From a virus (Duplodnaviria > Heunggongvirae > Uroviricota > Caudoviricetes): a DNA stretch of 47,026 bases. The notes under the pieces were generated by a model. That model was not told the origin of the DNA, made no database searches, and saw only the letters and a list, made by a program, of their open reading frames with translations. The DNA lies in the IMG/VR virus record IMGVR_UViG_2534681936_000011. One strand, given 5' to 3'. Shown here one piece after another: positions 27,651 to 28,870 of the stretch (the first letter of the stretch is position 1; every line of letters starts with the position of its first letter). The translations under genes were made by a program, and so were the position numbers.

Positions 27651-28870
27651 CGGAACGGGAACTGTCCATTATTCGTGCACTGGGAGAAGAATTCGCCACG
27701 GTGCTGGCGGATTTACAGCGCACATTTGAGGAGAAGATGGCCGCGCAGGCACAAGCGTTTGAAGAGAAACTGGCTTCCCTGTCGGCGGTATTACAGAAGC
27801 ATGTGACGGTGGATGAGGTACATCCGGTTCTGCAGGCGATGGTGGATGACGCTGTGGGGACCATTCCGGTACCGCGTGATGGTCGTGATTATGATCCGGA
27901 TGTACTGCAGCAGGCGGTGAATGATGCGGTTGCGAATATTCCGGTACCGGCGGACGGCAAAAGTATCACCCCCGATGATGTGCGTCCGATGCTTGAGCAG
28001 ATGGTGAAAGAGGCCGTAAGCCATATCCCTGCTCCGCGTGATGGTCGTGATTACGATCCGGAAGTACTGAAGCAGGTGGTGAATGATGCTGTCGGGAGCA
28101 TTCCTGTACCGGCAGACGGCAAAAGTCTCACCCCGGATGATGTGCGTCCGATGCTTGAGCAGATGGTGAAAGAGGCGGTAAGCCATATTCCTGTTCCGCG
28201 TGATGGTCGTGACTACGATCCGGAAGTACTGAAGCAGGCGGTGAATGATGCGGTCGCGAAAATACCGGTGCCGGCAGACGGCAAAAGTATCACCCCCGAT
28301 GATGTGCGTCCGATGCTTGAGCAGATGGTGAAAGAGGCTGTAAGCCATATCCCTGCTCCGCGTGATGGTCGTGATTACGATCCGGATGTTCTGCGGAAGG
28401 CGGTTCTGGAGGCGGTGAATGCCCTGCCGGCTCCGCAGGACGGGCGTGATGCCACGGCTCTGGAAGTGCTCCCCGCTATTGACGATCAAAAATCCTTTCC
28501 CCGGGGCACGTATGCCACACACCTGGGAGGATTCTGGCGGGCGTATGAAAAAACGCACGGGATGCGGGGATGGGAATGCCTGGTTGACGGGGTGGCGGAT
28601 ATTGACGTCAGTATGACGGGGGAGCGGTTGTTCTCTGTGGTGATCCGGCACAGCAGTGGCCAGCGTACGGAAAAAACATTTTCCCTGCCGGTGATGCTCT
28701 ACCGCGGTGTGTTCAGAGCCGGTGAAACCTACCACCCCGGTGATACGGTGACGTGGGGGGGCTCGCTGTGGCACTGCAACAGTATGACCGGTGATAAACC
28801 CGGAGAAGCTCATTCATCAGGCTGGACCCTGGCTGCAAAACGTGGACGGGATGCAGGAGGCGGAAAATGA
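27647..28870 (+). CDS. Head-module protein with 3.6 tandem 54-aa repeats (putative decoration or minor head protein)
   Basis: Start overlaps the portal stop; repeat IP(V/A)PRDGRDYDPxVLxQAVNDAVxxIPVPADGKS(I/L)TPDDVRPMLEQMVKEAVSH between an N-terminal coiled-coil and a unique C-terminal domain. Confidence 0.5.
   Translation: MTERELSIIRALGEEFATVLADLQRTFEEKMAAQAQAFEEKLASLSAVLQKHVTVDEVHPVLQAMVDDAVGTIPVPRDGRDYDPDVLQQAVNDAVANIPVPADGKSITPDDVRPMLEQMVKEAVSHIPAPRDGRDYDPEVLKQVVNDAVGSIPVPADGKSLTPDDVRPMLEQMVKEAVSHIPVPRDGRDYDPEVLKQAVNDAVAKIPVPADGKSITPDDVRPMLEQMVKEAVSHIPAPRDGRDYDPDVLRKAVLEAVNALPAPQDGRDATALEVLPAIDDQKSFPRGTYATHLGGFWRAYEKTHGMRGWECLVDGVADIDVSMTGERLFSVVIRHSSGQRTEKTFSLPVMLYRGVFRAGETYHPGDTVTWGGSLWHCNSMTGDKPGEAHSSGWTLAAKRGRDAGGGK
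27863..28450 (+). repeat. In-frame 162-bp tandem DNA repeats (about 3.6 copies)
   Basis: Units start at 27863, 28025, 28187 and 28349 with exact 162-bp period and high identity. Confidence 0.9.

Follow-up and report, generated by a model that had tools for sequence, protein, structure and literature searches.

A portal-adjacent phage protein of Escherichia coli prophages that varies in length by whole repeat units and occurs both free and fused to the portal

Introduction

What is a long tandem repeat doing in the middle of a phage head module, and does the gene that carries it make a protein of its own? The question arises from a 47,026-nucleotide stretch of DNA from a virus of the Caudoviricetes (IMG/VR record IMGVR_UViG_2534681936_000011), here called the window, which is a lambdoid prophage of Escherichia coli of the long-tailed Shiga toxin (Stx)-phage type. 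Between its portal gene and the gene for a gp6-like head-tail connector lies an open reading frame (ORF) of 407 codons, ORF2, that contains repeats of 162 bp. The array is an in-frame variable-number tandem repeat (VNTR), both variable and homogenized, and encodes whole helix-loop modules of a conserved gene under selection. Phage structural proteins that vary by in-frame repeats are already known. What goes beyond the ordinary is that the gene belongs to a very large, mis-annotated family tied to the portal, and that a short G tract toggles its product between free and portal-fused forms, both of them found in isolated phages.

The Repeat Array and Its Copy Number

Tandem Repeats Finder, run on the whole window, gave the array a score of 884 and placed it at 27872-28404, with 3.3 copies of a 162-bp period that match at 90% and contain no indels. 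It is the sole long-period repeat of the window and by far the strongest repeat of any kind. In the register of the protein it spans 27863-28450, with three full units and a partial fourth. A preliminary description of this DNA had reported exact 162-bp repeats encoding a 54-residue unit, within a 407-residue protein encoded between the portal and connector genes of the head module. The placement, coordinates, period and unit size all hold, but the repeats are not exact: full units differ pairwise at 12-18 positions per 162 bp (88.9-92.6% identity in DNA, 87-94% in protein). Among the codons that differ in any one pair, 8-9 are synonymous changes and 3-7 non-synonymous. The fourth unit is 55-56% identical in DNA to the full units over 162 bp, the likeness being confined to its first ~30 residues. 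Each 54-residue unit is made of two related modules, IPVPRDGRDYDP followed by a helix (25 residues) and IPVPADGKSITP followed by a helix (29 residues), and the 407-residue protein contains eight motifs of the type IPxPxDG(K/R)x. On the minus strand, a reading frame of 340 residues (27791-28813) lies antisense to the array and shows the same 54-residue periodicity; most likely it is a by-product of the repeats and of codon composition, not a gene.

An assembly artefact, the objection that the preliminary description raised against itself, can be ruled out, since NZ_CP015241.1, a complete chromosome, matches the segment 27400-28900 at 100% identity. Hundreds of complete genomes and phage records, all independent, carry this array too, with other unit counts.

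Variation in copy number, which had been predicted, is extensive. Among 83 distinct alleles, intact ORF2 products are 299, 353, 405/407, 461, 515 or 569 residues long, i.e., they differ by steps of 54 residues, and alleles carry from one to six full units, three being commonest. Matches to a 1,501-bp query in phage records span 1501, 1339 or 1177 bp, and matches to an ORF2 query in IMG/VR loci span 1059, 1221, 1383, 1545 or 1707 bp. P0001, a fused form, holds at least four units.

The concerted evolution proposed earlier is also apparent. Mean identity between units is 94.2% within a locus; across loci it is 92.0% for units that occupy the same position and 90.8% for units that do not. Because units within a locus are more alike than same-position units of other loci, the array is homogenized; in Sakai prophage Sp10 and in phage 2851, two units are identical in protein sequence. 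Such a pattern is characteristic of unequal recombination or slippage accompanied by homogenization. Unequal recombination, or slippage during replication, between units that are 89-94% identical adds or removes 54 residues at a time and keeps the reading frame, since the unit consists of whole structural modules and is a multiple of three bases (162 = 3 x 54). The same process homogenizes the units inside a locus. One suggested use of the array, as a typing locus, is doubtful for this reason and because genomes of enterohemorrhagic E. coli (EHEC) hold several copies of the head module. Strain Sakai, for example, carries it in Sp6, Sp9, Sp10 and Sp12 (PMC2669165), and near-identical portal/ORF2 DNA is found at many places per genome.

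The Junction with the Portal Gene

A run of five G (G5) precedes the start codon of ORF2. Alignment of junctions shows that the sole difference there between loci in which portal and ORF2 are split and loci in which they are fused is five G versus six (G6). With G5, the portal protein ends ...KAMLRGILRK and its TGA stop (27648-27650) overlaps the ORF2 start codon (ATGA), giving separate, overlapping genes. With G6, the portal frame (...KAMFRGDTEK-M-TEREL) continues into ORF2 to give one protein of 859-861 residues. One extra G at 27631-27635 therefore fuses ORF2 to the portal C-terminus in other phages.

Both states are widespread. A census of loci counted 55 with G5 and 30 with G6, and scans of IMG/VR for the exact patterns found 53 G5 and 39 G6 contigs. 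G5 and G6 are interleaved on trees of the flanking sequences, requiring at least 7-12 changes of state, and both are carried by two of 57 identical 900-nt upstream haplotypes. As in a contingency locus, then, a polymorphism in tract length switches the frame between near-identical alleles. The tract is nonetheless only 5-6 G in the loci examined, short of the 8 or more usual in long contingency tracts, and prophages that recombine with one another could also disseminate either state. The split state is that of Sakai Sp10 (ECs_1974/ECs_1975, G5) and of the inducible Stx1 phage BP-4795, where ORF58 and ORF59 are separate and ORF59 encodes 461 residues. The fused state is that of phage 2851 (859 residues), an infective, lysogenizing siphovirus with an ICTV-classified record, of an ST131 prophage (a single intact "portal" of 861 residues), and of a distant relative, P0242 (1,237 residues).

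One might suppose that a 1-bp deletion has cut an 861-residue portal gene in two, leaving ORF2 as nothing more than its C-terminal half, and that the repeats are decaying in a defective prophage. The preliminary description mentions neither the annotation behind this supposition nor the G5/G6 tract. The annotations invite it: the RefSeq pipeline PGAP applies the label "phage portal protein, frameshifted" to three G5 loci, one of them 100% identical to ours; an intact fused protein of 861 residues does exist; and the profile of PHROG 2271 models the portal-ORF2 fusion, ORF2 matching its positions 455-859. However, the 454-residue ORF upstream contains the whole portal domain (profile positions 2-321 of 321), and ORF2 matches neither a portal profile (PF04860/TIGR01537) nor a connector profile in Pfam or NCBIfam. 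In all four distant relatives examined (from Pseudomonas and three metagenomic phages), as well as in Salmonella phage FSL SP-016, the homolog of ORF2 is encoded separately, with an overlap of 1-8 nt between its start and the portal stop; in the distant relatives this is a plain start/stop overlap, and no G tract is found at the junction. Many stand-alone homologs begin at the same methionine as ORF2. Fusions to a portal are rare, amounting to two of 150 family representatives (P0242 and the E. coli cluster), and G5 is commoner than G6. ORF2 remains intact in G5 loci, under purifying selection, the ratio of non-synonymous to synonymous substitution rates (dN/dS) in its C-terminal domain being about 0.2 (0.20), as computed on an anchored 411-nt segment, since alleles of 405 and 407 residues differ in register. 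Finally, G5 phages BP-4795 and Sp10 form transmissible particles: Sp10 was scored portal-positive and head-positive and was packaged and transferred to K-12 (PMC2669165).

The complete portal domain upstream, the separate overlapping homologs, the shared start methionine, the rarity of fusions and the dN/dS near 0.2 together establish ORF2 as a distinct gene of the virion module, and two genes as the normal state. The notion of a broken portal gene, to which we give almost no credence, is rejected on the strength of the distant two-gene relatives, the purifying selection and the particle-forming G5 phages. The pseudogene label is an artefact that arises because fused G6 relatives exist.

Another possibility is that the junction is a site of programmed ribosomal frameshifting, at the G tract or at the A-AAA-UGA overlap, producing free portal and fusion in a set ratio. 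A tRNA-Gly that slipped by -1 on G-GGG in a G5 genome would enter exactly the fused frame (...RGDTAKMTEREL, as in P0001), while in G6 both alternative frames stop within 3-5 codons, which would give a short portal, and each state is common. Lambda G/GT, T7 10A/10B and Listeria phage PSA offer precedents in which overlapping frames at the 3' end give a short and an extended product. Against this, the zero frame (codons TTG-AGG-GGG-ATA) contains no canonical X-XXY-YYZ heptamer, the 121 nt of RNA downstream fold unremarkably (z=-0.86; 45 of 200 shuffled sequences fold as well), the distant relatives make do with no G tract, and nothing in G5 phages requires a fusion product. G5 and G6 are, unlike the precedents, fixed genotypes. 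With neither a slippery heptamer nor a structured (stimulatory) RNA at the junction, a programmed -1 site was rejected, and frameshifting to a set ratio seems very improbable. In principle, a slip by a single tRNA on the G run could interconvert the two products, but this is a minority hypothesis. It is also rather unlikely, if less so, that G5/G6 acts as a heritable switch, perhaps with low-level ribosomal slippage, by which some 12 copies of the protein would be either tethered to the portal or free, the VNTR tuning the length of tether or stalk. If that were true, Stx-type phages would possess a two-knob system, phase plus length, for varying the architecture of their virions, within a large and unrecognized class of portal-associated proteins.

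Protein Family and Predicted Structure

The preliminary description did not recognize the repeat unit as a common phage motif. In fact the motif defines a very large family. A HMMER scan of 1.84 billion cluster representatives (clusters at 50% identity) returned 5,587 clusters at E<=1e-3, 2,654 at E<=1e-10 and 627 at E<=1e-30. The family is covered by PHROGs 1289, 2271 and 8767; ORF2 matches end to end the profiles of these and of PHROG 16748 (described as "portal protein" or of unknown function), with E-values from 8e-196 to 2e-263 (phrog_1289, E=8.1e-196; phrog_2271, E=2.2e-263), and the architecture and position of their members are the same.

Members are mostly 250-700 residues long and consist of a conserved helical N-terminus, from one to about thirty modules of "PxPxDG(K/R)(D/S) plus a short helix", and a conserved domain of ~150 residues with the consensus GRDAL-IEILPAID-KSYPRGTYA-H-GGLWR...GDTVTWGGSLWHC...KPG...W-LAVKRGRDGKDG, in which certain G, D, R and W positions are invariant. 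ORF2 has all three parts. The gene lies directly after the portal gene in six of six contexts (the four distant relatives, FSL SP-016 and the E. coli module), with the connector gene next in all four distant relatives and in FSL SP-016, so that the E. coli order conforms to a general one: TerL, (protease) major capsid protein, portal, ORF2 homolog, connector. The same architecture and post-portal position are seen in phages of Pseudomonas, Enterobacter and Salmonella and in metagenomic phages. Collagen-like G-X-Y runs end 38 of 149 family representatives; some members contain the motif SAYxxAxxxGFxGTxxxWLxSL, which is typical of phage fiber proteins, and relatives give a weak match to PHROG 5073 (tail fiber).

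The names that databases attach to members, "portal protein" and "gp6-like head-tail connector", are by-products of fused or neighboring reference genes: a portal domain is present in one of the 149 representatives and a connector domain in none, and ORF2 has neither. Searches of ORF2 against Pfam-A, NCBIfam and PDB sequences gave nothing above threshold, only a recurrent sub-threshold match to CBM_5_12. PF28083, which precomputed annotations list, yielded no match in scans against a Pfam copy that seems to lack it.

Structure prediction, which the preliminary description had recommended, resolves the repeat unit into helix-loop modules. The AlphaFold2 model (from an alignment of 35 sequences; mean predicted local distance difference test, pLDDT, 71.6) consists of a long helix at residues 3-50, then nine helices of 12-17 residues predicted with low confidence, then a beta domain (residues 270-400) predicted with confidence. 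In the modeled stalk, each PxPxDG motif ("IPxPxDG(K/R)(D/S)") falls in a 12-residue loop between helices. The short helices are amphipathic. The stalk is acidic, with an isoelectric point (pI) of 4.56, while the C-terminal domain is near neutral. Foldseek matched ORF2 to CBM5/12 chitin-binding domains, the tail fiber of Agrobacterium phage 7-7-1 and the receptor-binding complex of phage Milano, and matches in BFVD were to phage proteins named "collagen triple helix repeat" and "ChiC_BD". These fibers and receptor-binding proteins are the best structural neighbors of the C-terminal domain, but the matches are short (48-160 columns) and of low identity (10-26%). Moreover, the E. coli ORF2 differs from collagen-type fibers in having no collagen run and in being encoded in the head module rather than the tail module.

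Possible Location and Role in the Virion

How might these parts work together? The model we favor, with perhaps an even chance of being right, would make the ORF2 product an accessory fiber of the portal vertex or neck with a stalk of variable length. Because ATGA overlaps join ORF2 to the portal gene (27647-27650) and to the connector gene (28867-28870), translational coupling would cause ORF2 to be made as a polypeptide of its own, in amounts roughly equimolar with portal and connector. The N-terminal region, presumed to be the anchor or oligomerization end, would hold the protein by its helix near the portal and neck; gene fusions (the "Rosetta stone" argument), coupling and synteny all point to such a position. 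The repeats would serve as a stalk, or spacer, that tolerates changes in length. The CBM5/12-like C-terminal domain would be the functional tip, binding carbohydrate, perhaps a glycan of the cell surface or of the environment. An external, fiber-like adhesin is favored because the domain vocabulary and the structural neighbors are those of phage fibers. Its being capsid-associated at all, as the preliminary description put it, is an inference.

Such a design has counterparts. T4 fibritin (wac) and the neck-passage or collar-whisker proteins of lactococcal phages have an N-terminal neck anchor, a segmented helical stalk broken up by short loops, and a distal folded domain, and they are accessory and variable in length. 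ORF2, with its anchor, looped helical stalk and distal domain, would, by analogy, be built on a similar plan; the fibritin and neck-passage genes do not lie beside the portal gene.

Several observations weigh against an external fiber. Literature searches found nothing specific on the function, virion proteomics, structure or portal frameshift of the repeat protein in these phages, nor any experimental placement of it in the virion. The repeat region is modeled with low confidence (pLDDT about 40-65). The match to PF02839 (CBM_5_12) falls below the gathering threshold (18.7 versus 26.2 bits, E=0.0018) and covers only ~50 residues; relatives score 21-23 bits, with E down to 1e-4. ORF2 is intact in most loci, but truncated forms make up 13 of the 83 distinct alleles, and phages may thus be able to do without the gene. 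There are, too, the natural fusions to the portal C-terminus (phage 2851, the ST131 prophage, P0242). To our knowledge the portal C-terminus points into the capsid in all solved portals, and the fusions therefore argue for an internal protein.

An internal protein would sit with its N-terminal helix on the portal crown, covalently so in G6, and leave with the DNA, in the manner of SPP1 gp7 and Mu gpF or of podovirus ejection proteins; its flexible repeats would thread the channel, and through its CBM5/12-like domain it would target peptidoglycan or the infected cell's envelope. This reading is possible, on balance unlikely, yet it carries substantial weight. ORF2 occupies the post-portal slot taken in other phages by proteins of the MuF/gp7 type, including the MuF polymorphic toxins (PMC5576092), and like them it has a modular C-terminal part; MuF proteins with C-terminal cargo are described in that report. 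A physical link to the portal, as with gp7 and gpF, is suggested for ORF2 by its natural fusions, which are in frame and, in phage 2851, present in an isolated phage, and translational coupling to the portal fits as well. The CBM5/12 fold binds polymers of N-acetylglucosamine, of which peptidoglycan is one. But ORF2 shares with gp7 and gpF no sequence similarity and no detectable fold. The Phage_Mu_F domain was not found in it with Pfam or PHROGs, gene position alone being common to them, and in place of a MuF or toxin domain it has helix-loop repeats and a CBM-like domain. We know of no internal protein with collagen-like tails, a fiber-type motif or external fibers as structural neighbors. 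The stalk is strongly acidic, and the fusions are rare and may be tolerated rather than functional, e.g., if trimmed by the prohead protease. A fused G6 product also recalls the C-terminal barrel of P22-type portals, in that it amounts to a portal with a C-terminal extension of 405-407 residues. In most relatives, though, the extension is a separate gene; it does not have the form of one coiled-coil barrel, and its last part is a beta domain.

Less likely still is a role in assembly, as a portal-anchored scaffold or head-size ruler that would nucleate or measure the (possibly prolate) prohead and be removed by the prohead protease, and whose number of repeats would set the length of the head; we regard it as a long shot. 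The N-terminal and repeat regions are acidic (pI about 4.5) and helical, as in scaffolds, and the gene adjoins the portal gene. Elongated (prolate) heads with long tails are on record for Stx1 phage H-19B (PMC8065619) and for PhiESI, a Salmonella phage related to FSL SP-016 (bioRxiv 10.64898/2026.03.17.712176), phages that may or may not carry this head module. Against such a role, a protease and a coiled-coil, scaffold-like segment are already built into the capsid protein; ORF2 is best conserved in its CBM-like beta domain, a kind of domain absent from scaffolds; and collagen-like tails occur in the family. Phages with one, two and three units have genomes averaging 52.3, 53.7 and 51.3 kb, and unit number shows no positive relation to genome length (rho -0.23, p=0.17). 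On this ground the head-size ruler was rejected.

Consequences for Annotation

Near-identical DNA is present in 1,247 of 5,426 complete E. coli genomes and in 93 phage records, among them Stx1a, Stx2a and Stx2c phages, BP-4795, 2851, YYZ-2008 and 1717. Roughly a fifth of complete E. coli genomes, along with many Stx1a, Stx2a and Stx2c phages, thus contain a gene that is systematically mislabeled, as portal, as connector or as a frameshifted pseudogene. Counting ORF2 as a separate conserved gene of the virion module, as it should be counted, changes calls of prophage intactness. For all its size, the family lacks a curated model in the Pfam and NCBIfam libraries used, and none of its members has a solved structure. 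Since its genes keep a conserved place, are coupled to the portal gene and in some phages are fused to it, the family offers a tractable candidate for a hitherto unknown part of the portal vertex of HK97-like siphophages. In practice, the VNTR and the G tract break short-read assemblies of EHEC prophages (many database entries are fragments at the ends of contigs), and they can serve as markers only with long-read data. In the record of phage vB_EcoS_phi330 (PV189401.1; locus L183, 702-3444), portal, ORF2 and several neighbors are split into short ORFs, perhaps owing to homopolymer errors left uncorrected in the deposited record and not to biology.

The Head Module and Other Features of the Window

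The genes of the module run in the order TerS, TerL, protease/capsid fusion, HK97 portal, repeat protein, gp6-like connector, head closure, gp10-like, gp17-like, tail tube and remaining tail genes. Coordinates of the portal, repeat-protein and connector genes and of their parts are given in Table 1.

Table 1. Positions in the window of the portal gene, ORF2 and its parts, and the connector gene.
Feature	Position	Strand	Remarks
HK97-family portal gene	26286..27650	+	454 aa; PF04860 E=2.9e-80, TIGR01537 E=1e-105; PDB relatives are HK97-type portals
G5 homopolymer	27631..27635	+	11 nt upstream of ORF2 ATG; junction alignment
ORF2, portal-adjacent repeat protein	27647..28870	+	407 aa; PHROG 1289 E=8e-196
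N-terminal region of ORF2 (aa 1-72)	27647..27862	+	Long helix aa 3-50 (pLDDT ~85), then a degenerate helix module
Repeat unit 1	27863..28024	+	54 aa, as 25-aa and 29-aa modules of "IPxPxDG(R/K)x + helix"
Repeat unit 2	28025..28186	+	Tandem Repeats Finder and unit alignment
Repeat unit 3	28187..28348	+	Tandem Repeats Finder and unit alignment
Partial, diverged unit 4	28349..28450	+	IPAPRDGRDYDP...LPAPQDGRD; leads into C-terminal domain
C-terminal beta domain of ORF2 (aa 269-407)	28451..28867	+	AlphaFold2 pLDDT 90-95; invariant residues in alignments
CBM5/12 (chitin-binding type 3)-like segment of ORF2	about 28709-28846	+	Last ~50 residues; sub-threshold match
gp6-like head-tail connector (Phage_connect_1) gene	28867..29193	+	PF05135 E=6e-8; PHROG 40 "head-tail adaptor Ad1"

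The capsid protein (24137-26074) is a fusion of 645 residues, with an S78 prohead protease at its N-terminus, a coiled-coil, scaffold-like middle and an HK97-fold domain. That the portal gene follows the capsid gene is unusual, and this order is kept wherever the repeat-protein family is found. Between the two lies an ORF of 73 residues (26119-26340), overlapping the portal start by 55 nt and labeled hypothetical protein in all related records. The tail tube protein (30405-31121) has a C-terminal immunoglobulin-like domain (Ig_2/I-set, residues about 150-233), which is a second candidate for a glycan- or surface-adhesion module on the same virion.

In NZ_CP015241.1 (locus L001, 8892-11328), insertion sequence (IS) elements of the IS3 family and IS30 lie between the gp17-like and major tail genes. 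The window has no IS insertion at that place and therefore represents a different copy or strain of the prophage type. Three adjacent tRNA genes are found at 15291-15531: a Met-type (CAT), which in Sakai Sp10 is annotated as ileZ tRNA-Ile, a Lys (TTT) and an Arg (TCT). The last, tRNA-Arg(UCU), reads the rare codons AGA and AGG, and AGG directly precedes the GGG of the portal/ORF2 G tract.

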